Source: an uncultured Candidatus Saccharibacteria bacterium (lineage in GTDB: Bacteria; Patescibacteriota; Minisyncoccia; Phycocordibacterales; UBA9973). Taken from it: 64,000 bases of DNA. Shown here piece after piece: positions 4,092 to 63,326 of this stretch (position 1 is the stretch's first letter; each line of letters begins with the position of its first letter). The stretch lies in NCBI GenBank assembly GCA_964426555.1, contig CAYRQJ010000003.1, positions 1,229 through 65,228 of the forward strand, written 5' to 3'. The notes under the pieces were generated by a model. The model saw only the letters and a list, made by a program, of their open reading frames with translations. It did not search any database and had not been told where the DNA came from. Made by a program: the position numbers and the translations under genes.

Positions 4092-6485
4092 CTATTGTTG
4101 AACTTTGTCTGTTTTTTTAGTATCACCTTCTTTTTCGTCTTTTGGTGTTTCTTCAATTTTTTGGTTAGTTAAACTGCCACCTGCACTAAATGTAGCAATT
4201 AATTCATCAACTTTAGTTGTATCGTTTATATATTTTTTTACTGTTTCTAGTGTTCTAATTACTGAATCTCTGTCTCCCAGTTTTTCATAAGTTAAAGCTA
4301 AAGATGAATATGCGTCAATATAGTTAGGAGAAATAGATACTGCTTTTTCAAACATTCTAGCAGCAGAACTATAATCTTGTTTAGAAAAATAAAGTAATCC
4401 TTTTTGATAAGGCAAACTAGCACTACTTGGGTTATAAGTCATAGCTTTATCTATTTGACGATAAGCAGCATCAGTATCACCATTAACCAAATCAATTTGA
4501 GCTAATAATAAATAAGAATCTGAAATTGCTGGATTTATATTTATAATTTGGTTTATGTATTCTTTTGCTAAATCATAATCTTTTGCATTTACAGCAATTT
4601 GAGCTTTTTTGTAAATAAGCGTCATATTGTTTGGACTATATTCTAAACCTTTATCAATTATTGTAATTGCATCTTTGTATGTAGATTTATCTCCAAAATT
4701 TAACACCATTTCATTTACAGCACTTAGTGCCATATAGTTTTGGTAATTCTGGGGGTTATAAGCTATAGAAATCTTTGCACTATCTGCTGCAGATTTTATT
4801 CTGTTTTGCACTAATGTAGTTAATTTTTCTTGAGATATTGTTTTGTCATTCAAAGCATAATTTATAGCTAGTAAATTAATGTTTGATAAAGATCTGGCAT
4901 AAATATCAAGCGGATTAATACTGATAGCTTTTTGTATATAATATTCAGCTTGGGCCAAACCTTGTTCGTTTAATTGTTCAAGTGATGCTTTATTTACTAA
5001 ATATCCAGAATATATTGATCCAAAGATACTTAAAAATCCAAGAGCTACAGCCACCATCATTACAATAACACCTAATATTCCAAAAAAACTATGTCGTGGA
5101 TCATTTATAAATACAAATAATTTTGGACTTTTTTCTTTTATAGTATTGATATATGAAATAAACATTCCCCACAATGCAACACTGCTAATAAATAAAGCAT
5201 TGTTTGGGTTATCAAATAAAAACAAAACAAAAGTATAAGCAACCAATGCAGCGTATATTGTTAATTCTCTTGATTTTGATTTATTTACAAAATCAAAATT
5301 AAATATTGAAAAATATTTTAAAATAAATAAAATTACAAAATAAATTAATAGTAGTGAGCCAACAGCACCAATAGTAGTAATCAATGTGAAGAATAAACCA
5401 ATTGATTTATTAAACGAAGCATTCCAGTATTGTGTTTTAAAAAACTGACCACCAGATAATTTGTATTTACCAGATTCCCATGTTTGGTTATAACGATTTG
5501 GCCCAATTGATGTTACAGGATTATGCCAATAAGAATTTTTTATTATTTTAATAGAAGAAACCAAAGTTGGTCTTGGTTCACTATTTGTAAAATAAAATGG
5601 TTTTCCAGAAACAAGTTTTGCAATATTTCTAGCTCCAACAATTGCAACAAAAGAACAAATTAAAATAATAAATGCAAATTTTGAAAAACTACGTTTAATA
5701 GTTTGGTTTTCTGACCCATCAATTGTATTTTTGTCTATATTTTGAGTTGGCATTAATTTATATATAAACAACGACAAACCAACCATTCCTAAGATAAACC
5801 AAACAAATGTATAATTAAATATAAACAAATAAAATAAAGACAAGCCCATAAACACTAAAGACCATATCTTCATTGGTTTGTTCCAAAAATTCTTTTCAAG
5901 TGTAATGGTAATTAAAATAACAAATCCAGCAAGAAATATTGCCATGTCATTGTATGTTCCAATTAAATTAGAGTTAGTTAATGATATAAAAAATTTTGGG
6001 AATTTAGCTACATATGGAACAAAAATATTGATTGTAGAAAAAACCAAAGCAATAATACCAGTAAGATAGATAGTTTTTATTATTTTAGATATAAAATTAT
6101 AACCTTGACCCCAAAGAGAAATTAGAAATAAATAAATAAAAGCTATAGCAAGTGAAGCAACAGTTCCAAAATCAAAACCTGTTCCAAGTATGGAATTAGT
6201 TTTGTTAGGTAAAAAAAATGTTATAGCAGCAGTAGCTACAATACTTAAAAGAAGAACATAAATTAATCTTCCTCGTGGAAAAGCAAATCGTCCAACTGTA
6301 ATTGCATCCAAAAGCCATAATATTGTACCTAAAAAGGCTGCAGTGGTTAAAATAATACCTTTTGAAGCTATCATACCTAATGGTAAAAAAGGTATAAACA
6401 AAACTAAAGATATACCCAACGCCCAAAGCATTATTTGTAATCCTAATTTAGACATTTTTGTTAGAGCAAAACTATTTGTATCCAT
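4092..6485 (-). CDS. polytopic membrane protein (O-antigen ligase/Wzy-like N-terminal domain) fused to C-terminal TPR repeats
   Basis: 797 aa. About 12 hydrophobic helices in the first ~480 aa; the C-terminal ~300 aa has repeated TPR-like 34-aa units ('AEYYIQKAISINP', 'AITIIDKGLEYSPNN', 'AKEYINQIININP', 'AYRQIDKAMTYNP', 'AARMFEKAVSISPNY'). Confidence 0.55.
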   Translation of the reverse strand: MDTNSFALTKMSKLGLQIMLWALGISLVLFIPFLPLGMIASKGIILTTAAFLGTILWLLDAITVGRFAFPRGRLIYVLLLSIVATAAITFFLPNKTNSILGTGFDFGTVASLAIAFIYLFLISLWGQGYNFISKIIKTIYLTGIIALVFSTINIFVPYVAKFPKFFISLTNSNLIGTYNDMAIFLAGFVILITITLEKNFWNKPMKIWSLVFMGLSLFYLFIFNYTFVWFILGMVGLSLFIYKLMPTQNIDKNTIDGSENQTIKRSFSKFAFIILICSFVAIVGARNIAKLVSGKPFYFTNSEPRPTLVSSIKIIKNSYWHNPVTSIGPNRYNQTWESGKYKLSGGQFFKTQYWNASFNKSIGLFFTLITTIGAVGSLLLIYFVILFILKYFSIFNFDFVNKSKSRELTIYAALVAYTFVLFLFDNPNNALFISSVALWGMFISYINTIKEKSPKLFVFINDPRHSFFGILGVIVMMVAVALGFLSIFGSIYSGYLVNKASLEQLNEQGLAQAEYYIQKAISINPLDIYARSLSNINLLAINYALNDKTISQEKLTTLVQNRIKSAADSAKISIAYNPQNYQNYMALSAVNEMVLNFGDKSTYKDAITIIDKGLEYSPNNMTLIYKKAQIAVNAKDYDLAKEYINQIININPAISDSYLLLAQIDLVNGDTDAAYRQIDKAMTYNPSSASLPYQKGLLYFSKQDYSSAARMFEKAVSISPNYIDAYSSLALTYEKLGDRDSVIRTLETVKKYINDTTKVDELIATFSAGGSLTNQKIEETPKDEKEGDTKKTDKVQQ

Positions 6486-12543: not shown

Positions 12544-13680
12544 CTATACCTTAAATTCTACCACATCTCCGTCTTTTACAATATAGTCTTTGCCTACTGT
12601 CATTAATTTACCTTTGGCACGAGCGTCACCATAACTACCGGCTTCCAAAAGATCTTTCCAGTATACTACTTCAGCGCGAATGAATTTATCACGAAAATCG
12701 GTATGTATTGCCATACCAGCAACTGGTGCGGTACTTCCTTTCTCAATAGTCCAAGCTCTTGTCTCGGTTTCGCCTGTTGTAAAATAAGTTTCTAGACCAA
12801 GTAATTCATAAGACCCACGGATAAGGTCGGTAATCCCGTCCCCTGATTCTCCTCCAAATTCACTGCGCATCTCTTCCTTCTCAGCGCCATCGAAATCTTT
12901 TAGTTCTTCTTCAATTTTTGCATCGAACAACACAAACCCTGCTCGTTCATTGTAAATTTCGTTTAATAATTCTTTGTAAATTTCTGGAGCTTCAATATTT
13001 AAATTTTTTGCACCAGCACGAGTGTTTAACCCATATAACATTGGTTTAATAGTAATTAACCCTAATTGTTTTATGGCTTTCATTTCAAACTCATCCAAAT
13101 CTGCACGACGTGCAGGTAAACCAATTTCAAGCAAAGCTAGCACTTTTTCAATTGCTGACAACTCAACTAATGCATTTTTGTCTCCGCGACTTGCGTCTTT
13201 AGCAACATTCCCACGACGCTTTGTAACAGTATCAAGATCAGCCAAAGCTAATTCCATATTAATTACAGACATATCACGAATAGGATTAAAATCGGTATAC
13301 ACATGTTGCATTTCCCCACCGCTTAATTCTTTTCCATCTTTACCCAGATTTGATATTGGGAATAATCGTACAAGATGTAAGATTGCATCAACTTCACGAA
13401 TATGAGTTAAAAATTTATTACCCAAGCCTTCGCCCTTGCTGGCGCCTTCTACTAACCCTGCAATATCCACAAATTCAATAATTGCTGGAACAGTTTTTAC
13501 AGACTCTGAAAATATACCCAGTAAATTTAATCTTTCGTCAGGGACAGGAACAATACCTACTGATGGGTCAATAGTACAAAAAGGATAGTTTTCTGCTGGA
13601 ACAGATTTTTTTGTAAGCGCGTTAAACAATGTTGATTTTCCAACATTTGGTAGTCCTACAATTCCGATACTTAATTTCAT
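12544..13680 (-). CDS. ychF: ribosome-binding ATPase YchF (Obg-family GTPase)
   Basis: 378 aa. 'MKLSIGIVGLPNVGKSTLFNALT' P-loop and C-terminal TGS domain 'TGETETRAWTIEKGSTAPVAGMAIHTDFRDKFIRAEVV'. Confidence 0.9.
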   Translation of the reverse strand: MKLSIGIVGLPNVGKSTLFNALTKKSVPAENYPFCTIDPSVGIVPVPDERLNLLGIFSESVKTVPAIIEFVDIAGLVEGASKGEGLGNKFLTHIREVDAILHLVRLFPISNLGKDGKELSGGEMQHVYTDFNPIRDMSVINMELALADLDTVTKRRGNVAKDASRGDKNALVELSAIEKVLALLEIGLPARRADLDEFEMKAIKQLGLITIKPMLYGLNTRAGAKNLNIEAPEIYKELLNEIYNERAGFVLFDAKIEEELKDFDGAEKEEMRSEFGGESGDGITDLIRGSYELLGLETYFTTGETETRAWTIEKGSTAPVAGMAIHTDFRDKFIRAEVVYWKDLLEAGSYGDARAKGKLMTVGKDYIVKDGDVVEFKV

Positions 13681-13782
13681 GTGGTTAATATAGCAGAAAT
13701 AAGGGTATTTGTCATTTATAAATTACATTATTTAAATTCTACTTTTATCGCAAAATATAGGTTTATCTGCTAGTATGGTTAT

Positions 13783-14355
13783 ATGACTATAAAGATAACT
13801 TCTACAAAATTTGTAAAAGGAGTTGTAGGTAATGACCCAATTTTAACCAATGGTATCCCCCATTTGGCGTTTATTGGTAGATCTAATGTGGGTAAATCCA
13901 GCCTTATAAATTCACTAACCCATAGTAAAATTTCACGTACTAGTAGTAAGCCCGGTAGTACAAGAGAAATAAATGTATATTTAATAAATGGAGAATATTA
14001 TCTTGTTGATTTACCAGGGTATGGATTTGCGCAAGGGTCAAAATCTAGTAAAGAAAAAATGAGTGATCTTATTGAATCTTATATTTTTAACCCTAACTAC
14101 ACTCAAAAAAAGATAGTTCTAATAATTGATGCCAATGTTGGCATGACTGAAAAAGATCTTAGCATGTACGAAGAACTAAAAGAAAGTAAAAAAGATTTTA
14201 TTGTAGCTGCCAGTAAAATAGATAAAATGACTCAGTCTGAATATCATCACAAAATCAAGGAATTAGAATCTATGGTTGGCGCAAGTATTCTGTACCCATT
14301 CTCTTCAAAGAAGAAAAAAGGGTTAGATAAAATTACAGAAGTAGTTTTTGGGTAA
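13783..14355 (+). CDS. engB: ribosome biogenesis GTP-binding protein EngB/YsxC (YihA)
   Basis: 190 aa. 'HLAFIGRSNVGKSSLINSLT', 'DLPGYGF' and 'SKIDK' are the G1, G3 and G4 motifs in EngB order. Confidence 0.85.
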   Translation: MTIKITSTKFVKGVVGNDPILTNGIPHLAFIGRSNVGKSSLINSLTHSKISRTSSKPGSTREINVYLINGEYYLVDLPGYGFAQGSKSSKEKMSDLIESYIFNPNYTQKKIVLIIDANVGMTEKDLSMYEELKESKKDFIVAASKIDKMTQSEYHHKIKELESMVGASILYPFSSKKKKGLDKITEVVFG

Positions 14356-14356
14356 T

Positions 14357-14395
14357 AAAAAAAGCAGGCCTTTTTAGACCTGCGTTTGATATGTT
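14357..14395. terminator. bidirectional intrinsic terminator between convergent engB and the T9SS-CTD protein gene
   Basis: Hairpin gcaggcc-ttttta-gacctgc with flanking A-run and T-run. Confidence 0.5.
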
Positions 14396-14407: not shown

Positions 14408-15511
14408 TTAATTTTTAACCATAAGCTTTTTAGTTAGTATTCCATACCGATTATCAACCAATATGGTATATAAACCGGTTGGAAGATTCTGAATTTCTAA
14501 AAAATTGTTTAATTCTTGAGAATTAGCTTCGTAAACCACTTTTCCATAAAGATCTGTGATTTGAATTTTATTTTCCAAAAGTTCAGTACCTTTTAAATCA
14601 ATAATTACAATATCAGTAGAATTAGCCGGATTAGGATAAACAACCATTTCTGGCTTTCCACTTAATTCTGTACCAATCTTTGGCATAACTATTGGAGAGT
14701 ATTCAAACTTATCATCATGGTCAATCTGCTTGATTCTATATGCACAGAATTTTATTGGCATATTATCAATAAATTCATAGTACAAATTTTGACTTGAATT
14801 TCCGGCACCTTTGATAGTTCCGATTCTTTCAAAATCTTTACCATTTACAGTGCGTTCGATTTCAAATCGATCATTATTGATTTCTGTAGCTGTAACCCAA
14901 TTAATGATATTTTTTATTCCATTAATTTTTGCACCTACTGTTAACCATGTAACTGGTAATGGGCTATTTGTGGCATCTAGGGTAAAGATTGTGTAATAAA
15001 AATCATCATCACAATCAAAAGCAACACCTGAAAATTTAACTTCAGTACTAGTAGTACTACTAGCTCCGCTAACTAGAGCAGTCCAATTTCCACTGGTTCC
15101 GGTCCTGCGAGCTAATATATAATTACTAGCAGTTCCAGGAGAAACAGAAACCCCATAATCTGGGAAGTTAAAAATAAAATCTACAGAATATGTATGATTT
15201 CCAGAATGATGCCCCGCATCAATCCGATACACAACATCCCATCTTTCATCTGCGCTAGAGATTCCCGAGATATCGGTATTATTCATTGCTCCTGTAGTTC
15301 CAGAACCTGAGTAAAAATCAATATTATGCTGTGGATTAGAAGCAAGCACCAATTTCAATGCACCATTAGTATAAGTGCCTGCATTTGAAATAGTTGTTTG
15401 TGCAAAAGCTTTTTCAAAGCCAATGGTAAATAGTAAGATCATCATAACTGACGAAATACGAAATCTGTTGCTCACTAGAGCTTCTTTTGGTAAAAAATTT
15501 TTAAATAACAT
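14408..15511 (-). CDS. secreted protein with C-terminal T9SS (Por secretion) sorting domain
   Basis: 367 aa with an N-terminal signal-like hydrophobic stretch. Last ~85 aa 'MVVYPNPANSTDIVIIDLKGTELLENKIQITDLYGKVVYEANSQELNNFLEIQNLPTGLYTILVDNRYGILTKKLMVKN' closely match the Por_Secre_tail/TIGR04183 CTD consensus (VYPNPA..., ..I.DL.GK.V, ..L..GLY.I.V......TKKL.V.). Confidence 0.6.
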   Translation of the reverse strand: MLFKNFLPKEALVSNRFRISSVMMILLFTIGFEKAFAQTTISNAGTYTNGALKLVLASNPQHNIDFYSGSGTTGAMNNTDISGISSADERWDVVYRIDAGHHSGNHTYSVDFIFNFPDYGVSVSPGTASNYILARRTGTSGNWTALVSGASSTTSTEVKFSGVAFDCDDDFYYTIFTLDATNSPLPVTWLTVGAKINGIKNIINWVTATEINNDRFEIERTVNGKDFERIGTIKGAGNSSQNLYYEFIDNMPIKFCAYRIKQIDHDDKFEYSPIVMPKIGTELSGKPEMVVYPNPANSTDIVIIDLKGTELLENKIQITDLYGKVVYEANSQELNNFLEIQNLPTGLYTILVDNRYGILTKKLMVKN

Positions 15512-15585
15512 AGAAGGATAAGTTTTTTAAAGTAAAACAAATTTTTAATATTGTCAAGATTATAACATCTATACAAGTTTTTGTC

Positions 15586-15622
15586 AAATAAAATACCAAG
15601 ATATAATCTTGGTATTTTATTT
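15586..15622 (-). terminator. intrinsic terminator downstream of the 108-aa gene
   Basis: Hairpin ataccaagat-ataat-cttggtat followed by T-run on the minus strand. Confidence 0.4.
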
Positions 15623-15633
15623 ATATATTTTTT

Positions 15634-15960
15634 TTACAAACCCATATTCCCCATTCCACCCATTAATTCCATTAGTGGCATTAATGCTTCACGGTGTTTT
15701 ACAAATTCATCTTTGTATTTCATCATTACAGCCATTTGTGCCATTTCTGGATTCATACCATTTTTTATTTTTTCTTCAGTTTCAGTTTGAATTTTTTCTA
15801 GCAAATTTTTTACTTCTTTATTATCTTCAAGACTTTTTAGTTTCTTTGCAAGATCTGGATTTTCTTCAATCTTTTTTACAAGTTCGTCTATTTTGTCTTC
15901 AGGTACGCCCTTTAATTTACTGCCTAATGCTTTTTTTAGTATCCAATGTTTTAATCCCAT
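15634..15960 (-). CDS. hypothetical Lys/Glu-rich protein with Met-rich C-terminus
   Basis: 108 aa; ends 'MPLMELMGGMGNMGL'. No family recognised. Confidence 0.35.
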   Translation of the reverse strand: MGLKHWILKKALGSKLKGVPEDKIDELVKKIEENPDLAKKLKSLEDNKEVKNLLEKIQTETEEKIKNGMNPEMAQMAVMMKYKDEFVKHREALMPLMELMGGMGNMGL

Positions 15961-48526: not shown

Positions 48527-50053
48527 ATGGCAAAAATAAAATCATTACAAAGCTACATTGGCTATTTAATTAAAACTATTCGTGAGCGTGAAGGTTTGAC
48601 TCAATCCAAATTTGCAAAAATGTTGGATACTTCACAGTCGGCAATTGCAAGAATGGAAAAAGGTGACCAAAACTTTACAACTAAAGAGCTAGAAAGAATT
48701 AGTGATACGCTTGGTGAGAGACTTATTACTATTGCTCCAAAAGTAGACGACTTTGAAGTTGTTGGTGGTAAAAAATTATCTGGATCTGTAACTACACATT
48801 ATTCTAAAAATGGAGCATTGGCGTTAATGGCGGCGGCATTATTAAACGAAAATACAACTACTTTGTATGGTATTCCAAGAATAGAAGAAGTTTTTCGTTT
48901 TATAGAAGTTTTTGAAAGTATTGATATTAAAATAACTTGGATAGACGACCATACATTGCGCATTACCCCACCAGAAAAATTTGATATTGAAAACATCGAC
49001 GAAAAAATAGCCGGAGGAATTCGTGTAAATTTATATCTTATTCCACCATTAGCTCATAAAATGAAGGAATTTCGTTTACCAAATCCAGGCGGATGTAAAA
49101 TGGGAGAAAGAACAATTTCTGCACATAAATACGCACTGGAAAAATTTGGTATTAAAATCAAATCTGAAGCTAAACATTATTTAGTTAAAAATTCTAAATT
49201 AAAATCAGCCGACATTACACTGTATGAAGCGTCAGACATGGCTGCAATTAATGCACTTATGGCGGCGGCACTAATTCCGGGTAAAACAATAATTCGTTTT
49301 GCTCCACCAAATTACCAAGTACAAGATGTATGTTTCTTTTTAAAACATTTAGGTGTACGCATAGAAGGTATTGGCACAACTACACTAACAGTGTACGGCG
49401 TAGAATACATTAACGAAGAGACTGAATGGTATAACAGTGAAGACCCAATTGAAAGTATGTTTTTCTTAGCGGCTGGTATTGTTACAGGTAGTAGTATAAC
49501 TATAAAAAGATGCCCTATTGAATTTTTACGTCTTGAAATGTTAAAGCTAGAAAAGATGGGATTAAAGTATACAATGTCTAAAATTTACAAAGGCCAAAAT
49601 GGTCATGTGGATTTAGTAGATATAAAAATAAAAGAAAGTAAATTACGTGCACTACCGGACAAAATCCATGCATTACCTTTCCCGGGAATAAATAACGACA
49701 ATTTACCTTTCTTTGTGCCTATTTCAGCTGTTGCCAAAGGTACTACTTTAATCCACGACTGGACATGGGAAAATAGAGCAATCTATTTTACCGAACTTAA
49801 CCGTCTTGGAGCTAAAGTATTACTGGCTGACCCACACCGTGTATATGTAGAAGGTGGTAGCGAATTACGCGGAGCACAAATTGTATGTCCACCGGCACTA
49901 CGCCCGGCTACAATTATTCTTATTGCCATGCTTGCAGCCGAAGGTAAATCAATACTACGTAATGTATACGCTATTAACCGTGGATACGAAGGCTTGATAG
50001 AAAGACTAACTGAATTAGGTGCTGAAGTAAGCCAAGTCCAAAATCTAAGTTAG
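48527..50053 (+). CDS. murA: UDP-N-acetylglucosamine 1-carboxyvinyltransferase (MurA) with N-terminal XRE-type HTH domain fusion
   Basis: 508 aa. Residues ~10-65 'LIKTIREREGLTQSKFAKMLDTSQSAIARMEKGDQNFTTKELERISDTLGERL' form an HTH_XRE. The remainder is the EPT fold with the catalytic Cys loop 'NPGGCKMGERTISAHKYAL' and 'KNGALALMAAALL'. Confidence 0.7.
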   Translation: MAKIKSLQSYIGYLIKTIREREGLTQSKFAKMLDTSQSAIARMEKGDQNFTTKELERISDTLGERLITIAPKVDDFEVVGGKKLSGSVTTHYSKNGALALMAAALLNENTTTLYGIPRIEEVFRFIEVFESIDIKITWIDDHTLRITPPEKFDIENIDEKIAGGIRVNLYLIPPLAHKMKEFRLPNPGGCKMGERTISAHKYALEKFGIKIKSEAKHYLVKNSKLKSADITLYEASDMAAINALMAAALIPGKTIIRFAPPNYQVQDVCFFLKHLGVRIEGIGTTTLTVYGVEYINEETEWYNSEDPIESMFFLAAGIVTGSSITIKRCPIEFLRLEMLKLEKMGLKYTMSKIYKGQNGHVDLVDIKIKESKLRALPDKIHALPFPGINNDNLPFFVPISAVAKGTTLIHDWTWENRAIYFTELNRLGAKVLLADPHRVYVEGGSELRGAQIVCPPALRPATIILIAMLAAEGKSILRNVYAINRGYEGLIERLTELGAEVSQVQNLS

Positions 50054-60604: not shown

Positions 60605-60616
60605 TTGTCATTTAGT

Positions 60617-60688
60617 GCCTCGTGAGGGGATCGAACCCCCGACCATCTCCTTAAGAGGGAGCTGCTCTACCAGCTGAGCTAACAAGGC
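60617..60688 (-). tRNA. tRNA-Lys (anticodon CTT)
   Basis: Reverse complement: acceptor gccttgt/acgaggc, D-arm tagctcagctggtagagca, anticodon loop cTCTTaa, T-arm ggggg-ttcgatc-ccctc. Confidence 0.7.
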
Positions 60689-60789
60689 AAAACAAAAATT
60701 AAAATTTTGTTAAGTTAGTTTATAATAAATAAACATAAAAATCAATCTGCTATTGAATATTTTCTTAAAATAGTATAAAGTATATCCAT

Positions 60790-60871
60790 GCCGAGGTGGC
60801 GAAATTGGTAGACGCACTGGTCTTAGGAACCAGCTCCGCAAGGAATGGAGGTTCAAGTCCTCTCCTCGGCA
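60790..60871 (+). tRNA. tRNA-Leu (anticodon TAG)
   Basis: Acceptor gccgagg/cctcggc, anticodon stem ctggt/accag with loop cTTAGga, long variable arm, T-arm ggagg-ttcaagt-cctct. Confidence 0.8.
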
Positions 60872-60888
60872 CACGCCCTCACCCAATT

Positions 60889-60974
60889 GCCCGAGTGATG
60901 GAATGGTAGACATAGGGGACTTAAAATCCCCAGGACATAGTCCGTGTGGGTTCGAGTCCCACCTTGGGCACCAA
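60889..60974 (+). tRNA. tRNA-Leu (anticodon TAA), CCA encoded
   Basis: Acceptor gcccgag/cttgggc, anticodon stem gggga/tcccc with loop cTTAAaa, long variable arm, T-arm gtggg-ttcgagt-cccac, 3' ACCA. Confidence 0.8.
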
Positions 60975-61106
60975 GAGAGCACGCAAGGCGTGCGTGTGGA
61001 CGAGAAAACCTTTTCTATATTTATGAGCCCCGTTATGTTCTCGGGGTGAATAAATAGAAAAGGTGTACAGATCCTGTAAGGATCGAGTTCTGGTATTAAA
61101 TAACAA

Positions 61107-61178
61107 GGTCCAGTCGCCAAGTGGTAAGGCAAGAGTCTGCAAAACTCTTATACGGCGGTTCGATTCCGCCCTGGGCCT
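61107..61178 (+). tRNA. tRNA-Cys (anticodon GCA)
   Basis: Acceptor ggtccag/ctgggcc (one G-U pair), anticodon stem agagt/actct with loop cTGCAaa, T-arm ggcgg-ttcgatt-ccgcc. Confidence 0.75.
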
Positions 61179-61193
61179 CACTAAACGACAATA

Positions 61194-61488: not shown

Positions 61489-61890
61489 TTAACAGTTTTG
61501 ACTTTGACCAGGAACACAAGGAAGTGTTACATCAGCAGAACCAGGTGTACCAGTACCTAATGTACGACGTACGATAGCTACAAGACCCCAAATTGTTGTT
61601 ATAACGAATAGACCCAACACACCATACAAGATTGTACCTTGAGCTTTCTTTTGAGCTTCTTCCCCACCACTACGTCCTGCAATGATGAATTGCACTACAC
61701 CAATGATGATCATTAAGATAGCAAACCCTACTAAAACACGAATGAACAAGTTCATTAATGATTGACCAGTACTAAGGATTGTTCCTACTGTTTGTGGACC
61801 AGTATAAGCTGGACCAACGTTAGTAGTACCCTGAGCAAATGATGCAATAGGAGCCAAGAAACCGAAAGCAAGTATTAATAAATTACGCAT
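61489..61890 (-). CDS. TrbC/VirB2-like pilin paralog P2
   Basis: 133 aa. Signal peptide 'MRNLLILAFGFLAPIASFA', helix 'FIRVLVGFAILMIIIGVVQFIIAG', loop 'RSGGEEAQKKAQG', helix 'TILYGVLGLFVITTIWGLVAIVRRTLG'. Cys-containing C-terminal tail. Confidence 0.5.
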   Translation of the reverse strand: MRNLLILAFGFLAPIASFAQGTTNVGPAYTGPQTVGTILSTGQSLMNLFIRVLVGFAILMIIIGVVQFIIAGRSGGEEAQKKAQGTILYGVLGLFVITTIWGLVAIVRRTLGTGTPGSADVTLPCVPGQSQNC

Positions 61891-61979: not shown

Positions 61980-63326
61980 CTATTTTATAATAATCTTTAC
62001 TTCGTTAGTTACATAGACTTTACTAGTTGTAATATCTTTATAGTGATACATTATACAACTTTGTGTCCCGGAGCCTGGTATTGTATAAGTTGGAGAAGTA
62101 TAACCAGTATCAGCAGTTAAGCTTTTATTAGAATTTTTTTCTAAAATATTCGGTCCAATAGTTCCGTCTCCTCCAATTATTTTGCATTGCACAAATAACA
62201 CACCATTATATGGAGTAAATGATTTATTAACATCCCAACCAAATTTACCTGTTACTGATCCAGCTTTTTCGCTAATCTTACTAAATGTTAAATTAGCAGT
62301 ATAAGGATTTGGAGTAATAGCATCTTTTGTTATTAAAGGAAAATTACCACTTGTTGTACCAGAACTTGTATTATTATTTGAAGCTGGCGCTTGACTACCA
62401 GCAGTAAGTAAGCTTTTTGAAGTATAACCAAGAAATGTTTTATCAGATTTAAAGATATTCCAAAAACCACTGGTTTCCCCACTAACATTTAAAACAGTTC
62501 CATAAGCATTTTTAGTAATAATATTGGCTGATGAAGCAGTGCTTGGGTCAGATCTTAGGTTTGCACCATTTAGAGCATTTACATAGTATTGTTTCAAAGT
62601 TCCAGCTACAGGAGAATTATCCGCAGGAGGAGTTACTACTGGGTCAGTTTTAACTGAATCACCCTGAGAATTTGTTGGTTCTTTTGCTACATCTTTTTGA
62701 GTATTAGGGTCTACTACTGTTCCAGTATTTGTTCCGTTGGTAGTTGTATTACCAGTACCCACCCCGGTTGTTGTATTATTATTTAAAACTGCACCTGCTG
62801 TTGCTGTTCCGTTAGAATTATTTACATTATTAACTACCCCAGCATTGGAGCCTGAATTAACTAGATTATTATTGTTGGTAATACTGGAATTACTAACCCC
62901 ACTGTCTTTTGAAATATTTGAAACAGTATCAATAATTACATTTGAAATTAACTGTGCCCCAAGAATTATTGCGGCCCCAATCAAAGTCCAAGTTAAAGTT
63001 TTATGAGCTGTTTCGATTGCTTCTGGTTTACCACGAGCAACAACATATAAGAATCCAGAATATATAACCATTACAATAATAACTGGTATAGCAAACTCAA
63101 TCACAACTTTTAAAATTTTTGCAATTAAATCTTTGATTGTAGTAGTACAACCCGTACCACCTTTTTTGTCACAAATTGGATTATCAATTGCTACCTTTAA
63201 TTCAAAATTATCCGCCGGAGTAGCAGTTTTAGCATCTTGTGCAATTGCTAATTTAGGAAGCATTGCAAAGTTTCCAGAAAATACAACTATTAAAAACAAT
63301 AAAGATGTTAGAAAATTTTTTTTCAT
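61980..63326 (-). CDS. giant pilin-like paralog P3: TrbC/VirB2-like N-terminal module + N/T/G/S low-complexity linker + SH3b-like domain + unknown C-terminal domain
   Basis: 448 aa. Signal peptide, helix 'ILKVVIEFAIPVIIVMVIYSGFLYVVARG', loop 'KPEAIETAHKT', helix 'LTWTLIGAAIILGAQLIS'. A ~120-aa linker follows ('NNNNLVNSGSNAGVVNNVNNSNGTATAGAVLNNNTTTGVGTGNTTTNGTNTGT'), then 'YYVNALNGANLRSDPSTASSANIITKNAYGTVLNVSGETSGFWNIFKSDKTFLGYTSKSLL' (SH3_3-like). Start codon fused to the cassette C arm. Confidence 0.5.
   Translation of the reverse strand: MKKNFLTSLLFLIVVFSGNFAMLPKLAIAQDAKTATPADNFELKVAIDNPICDKKGGTGCTTTIKDLIAKILKVVIEFAIPVIIVMVIYSGFLYVVARGKPEAIETAHKTLTWTLIGAAIILGAQLISNVIIDTVSNISKDSGVSNSSITNNNNLVNSGSNAGVVNNVNNSNGTATAGAVLNNNTTTGVGTGNTTTNGTNTGTVVDPNTQKDVAKEPTNSQGDSVKTDPVVTPPADNSPVAGTLKQYYVNALNGANLRSDPSTASSANIITKNAYGTVLNVSGETSGFWNIFKSDKTFLGYTSKSLLTAGSQAPASNNNTSSGTTSGNFPLITKDAITPNPYTANLTFSKISEKAGSVTGKFGWDVNKSFTPYNGVLFVQCKIIGGDGTIGPNILEKNSNKSLTADTGYTSPTYTIPGSGTQSCIMYHYKDITTSKVYVTNEVKIIIK

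Follow-up and report, generated by a model that had tools for sequence, protein, structure and literature searches.

A stretch of 64,000 nucleotides (nt) of contig CAYRQJ010000003.1 (hereafter the window) encodes on its minus strand, at positions 14408-15511, a protein of 367 amino acids (aa) that ends in a C-terminal domain (CTD) of the kind that a type IX secretion system (T9SS) recognizes. Sorting domains of the T9SS are regarded as a hallmark of Bacteroidota with their relatives, and of secretion across an outer membrane. Here, a clean and non-artefactual example is found in a bacterium of the Candidate Phyla Radiation (CPR) that most likely possesses neither an outer membrane nor a T9SS. 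The gene was probably acquired from Bacteroidota, and its product would be exported by the Sec pathway as a variable, adhesin-like surface protein in which the CTD is kept as a folded module. The open reading frame (ORF) starts with ATG and closes with a stop codon at 14408-14410; it is backed by the ORF list, by matches to the family models PF18962 and TIGR04183 and by orthologues on two related contigs, termed L002 and L005.

The CTD covers residues 286-367 (14411-14656, minus strand). The Pfam model PF18962 (Por_Secre_tail) aligns over its entire length (profile positions 1-75 of 75) to residues 291-365 with an E-value of 1.4e-11 and a score of 45 bits (gathering cut-off 27 bits). The NCBIfam model TIGR04183, with a cut-off of 23 bits, likewise aligns completely (1-72 of 72) to residues 291-366 (E 5.6e-11, 42.3 bits). 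The match ends at residue 366 of 367 and places the domain at the extreme C-terminus. A custom hidden Markov model (HMM) was trained solely on homologues outside the CPR-like clade (P0010-P0120), which are mostly of the Bacteroidota type, and on this model the CTD scores 59.6 bits, equal to the median of the model's own training set. These scores indicate a canonical rather than a marginal CTD. Other members of the CPR clade carry weaker domains (34-42 bits on the custom HMM), several of which do not exceed the 5th percentile of the Bacteroidota-type set. When the CTD is aligned with Bacteroidota proteins, six residues (P293, N294, P295, G323, G346 and Y348) never vary, and K362 is conserved. 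A first-pass annotation made from the sequence had already pointed to the resemblance of the last ~85 aa to a T9SS CTD and to the motif order YPNP, D..GK, GxY and a terminal lysine. These motifs correspond to invariant or near-invariant alignment columns, and the search with PF18962 and TIGR04183 that was proposed there as a check, in which a sub-threshold score would have counted against the claim, gave full-length matches above both cut-offs. In the AlphaFold2 (AF2) model the domain is formed by seven predicted beta-strands between residues 288 and 366, with a mostly high predicted local distance difference test score (pLDDT). PorU of P. gingivalis (6za2_B), which itself bears a CTD, is among the Foldseek matches, which were obtained with the whole model and not with the CTD alone. 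By its sequence, the C-terminus belongs to the Por_Secre_tail family, and every defining sequence feature that was looked for was found. A scan of all stop-to-stop ORFs with the CTD HMM identified this protein as the only one with such a domain in the window, and each of the CPR loci examined likewise contains a single CTD protein.

The N-terminus presents a predicted Sec-type signal peptide (residues 1-37, 15401-15511, minus strand), consisting of a basic n-region with the motif RFR, the hydrophobic core ISSVMMILLFTIGF and a predicted cleavage site between AFA and Q. Hydropathy (a Kyte-Doolittle peak of 2.65 at residues 22-32), the AF2 model (low pLDDT for residues 1-18 and a helix at 20-28) and the conservation of the (T/A)FA motif among homologues agree with this assignment. 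Two other export classes were considered and rejected: a lipoprotein, as the leader contains no lipobox cysteine, and a sortase substrate, as neither an LPXTG motif nor a C-terminal transmembrane (TM) segment is present. The AF2 model was built with an alignment of 80 sequences, reaches a mean pLDDT of 85 and resolves three beta-sandwich domains, which span residues 38-178, 188-271 and 288-366. The first of these, the N-terminal domain (residues 38-183, 14963-15400, minus strand), reaches a pLDDT of 93.8 when modelled alone. It has no Pfam model, and a fold search against the PDB yielded no significant match to a solved structure. Its top fold matches are weak (best E 0.024) and consist nearly entirely of jelly-roll modules of the CBM32, CBM35, CBM4 and chitosan-binding types, which is only a hint of likeness to carbohydrate-binding modules. 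The central domain (residues 184-285, 14657-14962, minus strand), for which there is also no Pfam model, is an Fn3/Ig-like beta-sandwich by its invariant alignment columns (PLPV..W.T..E.NNDRFEIER..G.GNS..Y.F.D...YR.KQ.D), by its AF2 strands at residues 188-271 (pLDDT ~90-96) and by Foldseek. With the whole model, Foldseek returned generic tandem FN3/Ig matches only, and a sequence search of the PDB with the protein gave chance matches only.

The window itself is a piece of a Patescibacteria genome of the Parcubacteria/Paceibacteria type, as judged from its protein relatives and gene content. All named relatives of its YchF protein (66-68% identity) are Patescibacteria, namely Candidatus Pacebacteria, Paceibacterota, Parcubacteria, Nomurabacteria and members labelled 'Patescibacteria group', while unnamed metagenomic relatives reach 78-100% identity. 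In the NCBI taxonomy, Paceibacterota (Minisyncoccota) are now placed in the kingdom Bacillati. The GC content ranges from 28 to 37% across the window, and about 50 of its ORFs were scanned with Pfam. Genes related to translation encode LepA, leucyl-, lysyl- and seryl-tRNA synthetases (LeuRS, LysRS, SerRS), a short IF-2 of 498 aa, YchF, EngB and GreA. Cell wall synthesis is represented by MurJ, two transpeptidases of the PBP2 type, MraZ/MraW, MurF, a MurE-like ligase, MurB, MurA and alanine racemase; further genes encode TopA, RelA/SpoT, ParB, ClpB and DprA. Families typical of CPR are also present, with one DUF5671 protein and two T4SS_pilin (PF18895) proteins, the latter family being among the profiles used for VirB2-like pilins of the type IV secretion system (T4SS) in a dataset of 3,035 CPR genomes (10.1101/2025.01.22.634366). 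This inventory agrees with the description of the context in the first-pass annotation as core housekeeping with CPR-like features. Its remark that nothing else in the window suggests an outer membrane also holds, as BamA, Lpt, Lpx, Tol-Pal, TonB and T9SS components are missing among the ~50 ORFs scanned. The converse that it had named as fatal to its claim, a contig from a Bacteroidota-related lineage with a T9SS gene set, is at odds with the exclusively patescibacterial names among the YchF relatives.

The absence of this machinery bears directly on whether the CTD could serve as a working sorting signal, either through an unrecognized route resembling the T9SS or through an outer envelope layer. 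The canonical and conserved nature of the domain speaks for such a route, as does the fact that the inspected sequence is a small part of the genome. On the other hand, no T9SS or outer-membrane gene was detected in the ~50 window ORFs or in the 21 kb inspected of L002, the closest relative, and each CPR locus examined encodes one CTD protein, whereas organisms with a T9SS usually carry tens of them. Moreover, CPR bacteria are proposed to have no outer membrane, and they have a monoderm-type T4SS (10.1101/2025.01.22.634366). According to one account (PMC11611037), the T9SS is restricted to Bacteroidetes and their close relatives. An unrecognized export route, which had been one of the readings offered at first, finds no support in the window or the related loci, conflicts with the literature on CPR envelopes and is very improbable. 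Considered as a T9SS substrate, the protein has the predicted leader but lacks the context, in that genes for neither the machinery nor an outer membrane were found in the sequence inspected.

A Bacteroidota-type domain in a CPR contig could also result from Bacteroidota DNA that was joined to it by misassembly or misbinning. The closest annotated relatives of the protein are indeed Bacteroidota proteins, and one good match comes from a contig of only 2.4 kb (L006) that was binned as Bacteroidia. Yet the gene is flanked by the same CPR housekeeping genes in assemblies from three independent sources (NCBI, JGI and Logan). An identical protein adjoins EngB on a Logan contig from SRR12712864, an orthologue with 87% aa identity (P0002) is present on an NCBI metagenome contig (L005), and another with 67% aa identity (P0003) on the 66-kb JGI contig Ga0502761_0000638 (L002). 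The upstream order of a penicillin-binding protein (PBP) gene, MurF, a 108-aa ORF and the CTD gene is common to the window, L002 and L005, and the same kind of promoter and terminator accompanies the gene in each assembly. The GC content of 0.332 and the GC content at third codon positions (GC3) of 0.209 match the averages for a further 32 genes of the window (0.333 and 0.206), and the codon-usage distance falls inside the range of these genes. Given the synteny, a chimeric assembly or misbinning was rejected and is so improbable that it can be set aside in practice; a recent transfer was rejected as well, since the composition is fully ameliorated. Downstream, the three contigs differ in gene content. 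EngB and YchF follow directly in the window; L002 carries an additional 723-aa protein with SBBP, Pur_ac_phosph_N and PG_binding_1 domains adjoining the CTD gene, which is absent from the window, and L005 carries a DUF5666-like gene and a gene encoding more than 1000 aa. The gene is thus located at the edge of a strain-variable region. In the same neighborhood, a five-gene cluster of the carotenoid type (Caroten_synth, UbiA, an Amino_oxidase/phytoene-desaturase-like gene, SQS_PSY and polyprenyl synthase) is inserted between EngB and YchF in L002 (14067-19022) and is absent from the corresponding window junction (13680-13783). Such a strain-variable pigment island is unexpected in a CPR genome.

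The distribution of relatives points to Bacteroidota as the source. A large protein search returned 323 matches and, beyond a few close relatives, these are T9SS type A proteins. Apart from one Nomurabacteria protein (P0008), all named matches are from Bacteroidota (Chitinophagaceae, Rufibacter, Dyadobacter, Vicingaceae, Crocinitomicaceae and Saprospirales), and they align to the C-terminal half at 30-40% identity, some over more of the protein. An exhaustive phmmer search of 1.84 billion representatives yielded 119 relatives of the N-terminal domain. In a sample of 43, Por_Secre_tail was present in 41, and some also contain Laminin_G_3 or Calx-beta. These proteins often comprise 600-2000 aa, with the N-terminal domain directly preceding the central domain and the CTD. 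As this arrangement recurs in T9SS cargo, the three domains constitute a recurrent C-terminal module of such proteins, and the protein studied here is a minimal version of it, consisting of a signal peptide and the cassette. At the genome level, an alignment of the close clade was scanned against one genome per species for 185,579 species (GTDB), which gave more than 590 relatives. The best 80 of these loci comprise 78 from Bacteroidota, one from Ignavibacteria and one from Ca. Nomurabacteria. A scan of the same set with the protein alone found no relative, so that the species of the window is apparently missing from the GTDB representatives. Metagenome contigs scanned with the CTD alone gave no match, and with the close-clade alignment they gave only relatives of 25-46% identity; neither further close copies in CPR nor a donor of the window's CTD allele came to light in these scans. 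The best genome match, with 38% identity over residues 79-366, is a 639-aa ORF at 232-2148 of L006 (JAEUTR010000023.1), the short Bacteroidia-binned contig mentioned above; its GC content of 32% equals that of the CPR loci, and the bin assignment may be unreliable.

A second CPR lineage carries a related gene. P0008 is a protein of 579 aa from Nomurabacteria SJ250 (GCA_020846955.1, contig JADLCZ010000040.1) with 32% identity over 93% of the window protein, and it is surrounded by genes for ribosomal proteins, RF-1, ATP synthase and a split transketolase. Automatic annotation at NCBI has already named it 'T9SS type A sorting domain-containing protein'. Another relative, P0004, is 39% identical to the window protein. 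In this lineage (Nomurabacteria SJ250 and a Logan contig; L086, 289-3227, and L003, 4082-7674), a FAD_binding_4/FAD-oxidase_C gene always follows the CTD protein. The FAD oxidases beside P0004 and P0008 are 69% identical, while P0004 and P0008 themselves share only 36%. The common neighbor suggests that this lineage keeps the CTD gene at a conserved position, where it evolves much faster than the adjacent gene. A rough neighbor-joining (NJ) tree of the C-terminal half groups P0001-P0005 with P0007 and places P0008 elsewhere; it is star-like, lacks support values and was not used to decide between one acquisition and several. The dominance of Bacteroidota in the distribution, in combination with the ameliorated composition, argues for a transfer from Bacteroidota to CPR some time ago that was followed by vertical inheritance. 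A borrowed origin of the cassette is well supported by these comparisons, and the horizontal acquisition envisaged in the first-pass annotation is borne out in the form of an older event. In line with this, predictions of gene donors to groundwater Patescibacteria, Paceibacteria among them, place Bacteroidota among the most frequent per genome (PMC12455944), and co-variation with Chitinophagales in activated sludge is reported for Parcubacteria, Nomurabacteria among them (PMC9530719). A literature search brought up no publication in which T9SS CTDs of CPR are discussed.

The gene evolves rapidly and as a mosaic. Between the window and L002, eleven flanking proteins are 94-100% identical, compared with 67% for the CTD protein; between the window and L005 the values are 98-100% and 87%. 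The ratio of nonsynonymous to synonymous substitution rates (dN/dS) is 0.30-0.40 for the gene and 0.01-0.07 for its flanks. It lies between 0.2 and 0.35 in each domain with enough substitutions for a measurement (0.20-0.35 in the CTD), which indicates that all parts of the protein are constrained. The differences from L005 are unevenly distributed. Nt 104-597 of the gene are identical (494 nt), where 14.3 differences would be expected from the flank divergence of 2.9% (Poisson P ~6e-7), and only six differences more occur up to nt 878. In contrast, 26 differences fall into the first 103 nt, which encode the signal peptide (~25% diverged), and 75 into nt 879-1095 (~35% diverged). The 3' recombination breakpoint falls on codon 293, where the CTD begins with its YPNP motif. 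The three strains differ from one another in their CTD alleles, which share 67-74% nt identity, and also in their signal-peptide alleles, which share 71-80%. Synonymous divergence (dS) inside the CTD is saturated at ~1-1.3, which suggests that the alleles were imported via recombination and did not arise by local mutation. The CTD thus behaves as an exchangeable cassette, and the occurrence of three diverged alleles in near-identical strains implies a pool of CTD sequences somewhere in the population. This is the pattern to be anticipated if an exposed surface protein is subject to diversifying or frequency-dependent pressure, for instance from a partner cell, a phage or a grazer.

Rapid divergence is also what a relic might display, in which the CTD, or perhaps the whole protein, persists by inertia and has no specific role in the CPR cell. 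The protein is far more divergent than its neighbor genes, several CTDs of the CPR clade score no higher than the 5th percentile for the Bacteroidota-type CTDs, and the family is rare, as two metagenome scans and the genome representatives yielded nothing closer. Decay is unlikely, however, as the reading frame is intact in all copies and dN/dS stays at 0.2-0.4 in every measurable domain. In addition, a consensus promoter and a terminator are kept across strains, the gene is retained in synteny in two CPR lineages with streamlined genomes, and AF2 folds all three domains confidently.

Cassette exchange at an exact domain boundary might alternatively result from matching to variable host receptors. 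It is conceivable that the CPR cell, living on or with a Bacteroidota partner, displays a genuine CTD to which the partner's PorV shuttle binds, or else its PorU/PorZ attachment complex, which might even form a covalent link, so that an epibiont or an effector would be tethered to the host surface. The CTD of the window is suited to such docking in that it is canonical, at the Bacteroidota median of 59.6 bits, and under purifying selection, and its source lineage, Bacteroidota, would also be the host. The association of Parcubacteria with Chitinophagales in sludge (PMC9530719) and the frequency of Bacteroidota among predicted donors to Patescibacteria (PMC12455944) are compatible as well. Other CPR-clade CTDs are weaker, at 34-42 bits, and T9SS surface components are not known to accept a CTD that is offered from outside the cell. 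The reading is wholly speculative and decidedly unlikely. More doubtful still is the stronger version, in which the CTD acts as cassette-swappable mimicry that docks or covalently anchors the epibiont or a protein on a Bacteroidota host, with hypervariable alleles tracking host variants.

The explanation preferred here, an acquired gene for an exported surface protein, would involve the following course of events. The ancestor would have been a Bacteroidota T9SS cargo protein, which a patescibacterial lineage of the Parcubacteria/Paceibacteria type gained horizontally some time ago and has since inherited vertically at a fixed locus. The protein would be exported by Sec through its N-terminal signal peptide. 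As both an outer membrane and a T9SS are most likely missing from the cell, the CTD would not act as a translocation signal and would instead be retained as an Ig-like folded module of an extracellular protein, either surface-exposed or released. Adhesion or binding is the likely role, and the jelly-roll-like N-terminal domain might tentatively be considered for contact with glycans. Alleles of the signal-peptide and CTD segments have diverged strongly and recombine where the domains meet. The third reading of the first-pass annotation, in which the CTD is put to a new use as a surface or beta-sandwich module, is the one favored here, although it is inferred rather than shown.

Phage proteins provide a precedent for such a reuse. 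A 280-aa protein (P0064) with the central domain and a Por_Secre_tail-like CTD is encoded at 10001-10843 of L087 (JGI contig Ga0437629_0000016, 27.7 kb) in a phage-like structural module, with PhageMin_Tail, Peptidase_S49 and DUF6712 proteins as neighbors. The central domain is also encoded on 48 IMG/VR viral contigs, in some cases together with a CTD. Phage proteins in BFVD, such as A0A8D9C9S7 and A0A6J5M2J1, match the structural model; the names used there include 'Secretion system C-terminal sorting domain' as well as 'Putative Fn3-like protein'. Since these proteins contain the same domain types and are not exported by a T9SS, they suggest that the fold can serve as a generic Ig-like surface module. 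Phages are also a possible vehicle for movement of the cassette between phyla.

Several points weigh against the preferred explanation. The absence of T9SS and outer-membrane genes holds for the 64-kb window and ~21 kb of its relative. The direction of transfer is read from taxonomic distribution rather than from a supported phylogeny. No LPXTG motif, SLH domain, PG_binding domain or C-terminal TM anchor was found in the protein, which leaves attachment to the surface presumptive, and the leader would be equally compatible with an uncleaved N-terminal anchor. The proposal of glycan binding is a weak inference from fold matches that are not significant. Finally, the CTD score is typical of Bacteroidota CTDs and would fit continued use as a recognition signal.

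The signals around the gene correspond to those of an independent transcription unit. A sigma-70-type promoter (TTGACA-17 nt-TATAAT, 15559-15587, minus strand) with a TG extension is located ~48 nt 5' of the ATG and matches the consensus in 12 of 12 positions in a promoter scan. The same arrangement precedes the orthologues in L002 and L005, and TTGACT-17-TATAAT is found in L086. A strong intrinsic terminator (GCAGGTCT-AAAA-AGGCCTGC followed by a T-run, 14354-14383, minus strand) was identified by a terminator scan directly 3' of the stop codon, between the convergent EngB and CTD genes, and an equivalent hairpin with a T-run occurs 3' of the L002 and L005 orthologues. The layout of promoter and terminator recurs in the more distant L086. 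An AT-rich hairpin (15586-15622, no strand assigned) lies between the upstream 108-aa ORF and the promoter, with G+C-rich hairpins at the equivalent place in L002 and L005, and would set the gene apart as a single-gene transcription unit. By these signals the gene looks like a stand-alone and well expressed unit. The 108-aa ORF directly 5' of it (15634-15960, minus strand) is 99-100% conserved between strains with a dN/dS of ~0. It has no Pfam match, and its product is predicted to be helical and charged, with a Met/Gly-rich tail (MPLMELMGGMGNMGL).

Additional features of the window were recorded. A MurA homologue at 48527-50053 (plus strand; EPSP_synthase fold, residues 80-494) bears an N-terminal helix-turn-helix (HTH) domain of the XRE type (HTH_3, residues 15-64), and such a junction of an HTH with a cell wall enzyme is unusual. 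The two T4SS_pilin proteins are encoded by adjacent genes on the minus strand at 61489-61890 (133 aa) and 61980-63326 (448 aa); VirB4 was not seen in the window. Between LeuRS and MurJ, a 797-aa protein (4092-6485, minus strand) contains TPR repeats that are confined to its last ~200 residues, while the first ~580 residues are without a Pfam match. Four clustered tRNA genes, Lys-CTT, Leu-TAG, Leu-TAA and Cys-GCA, occupy 60615-61179, and the listed ORF at 60710-61132 is probably spurious because it overlaps this cluster.

One consequence concerns the annotation of metagenomic bins, for which a CTD alone is unfit to infer a T9SS or a diderm envelope. Automatic labelling had already flagged one such protein in a Nomurabacteria metagenome-assembled genome; the present case adds another member of a familiar protein type in a lineage where it was not expected. 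The gene can further be regarded as a marker of gene flow from Bacteroidota to CPR of the Parcubacteria type and, as such, as a lead to possible partners or hosts of this lineage. It also marks a hypervariable, recombining locus for a putative surface protein in otherwise near-identical CPR strains, and genes of this kind are expected to mediate cell-cell contact in uncultured CPR.

Among known systems, three can be compared with this protein. The phage Fn3/Ig-like proteins (BFVD A0A8D9C9S7 and A0A6J5M2J1; Ga0437629_0000016) share the central domain and in some cases a CTD-like beta-sandwich with it, at 20-45% identity over single domains, but they are virion or structural-module proteins and their export does not depend on a signal peptide. 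Nomurabacteria P0008 resembles it in presenting the cassette in a CPR housekeeping context and differs by an extra N-terminal region and by its other locus beside the FAD oxidase, which is shared with P0004. The T9SS type A cargo of Bacteroidota (Chitinophagaceae, Rufibacter, Dyadobacter, Saprospiraceae) belongs to organisms with a large cargo repertoire and often comprises 600-2000 aa, with Laminin_G_3, Calx-beta or other domains preceding the cassette. In contrast, the protein of the window is minimal, occurs as a single copy per locus and is encoded in a Patescibacteria genome in which the inspected sequence contains no T9SS or outer-membrane genes. Both nevertheless share an N-terminal Sec signal peptide, the cassette of N-terminal domain, NNDRFEIER-type Fn3-like domain and CTD, with 30-40% identity over the C-terminal half, and the canonical CTD motifs at the very C-terminus.

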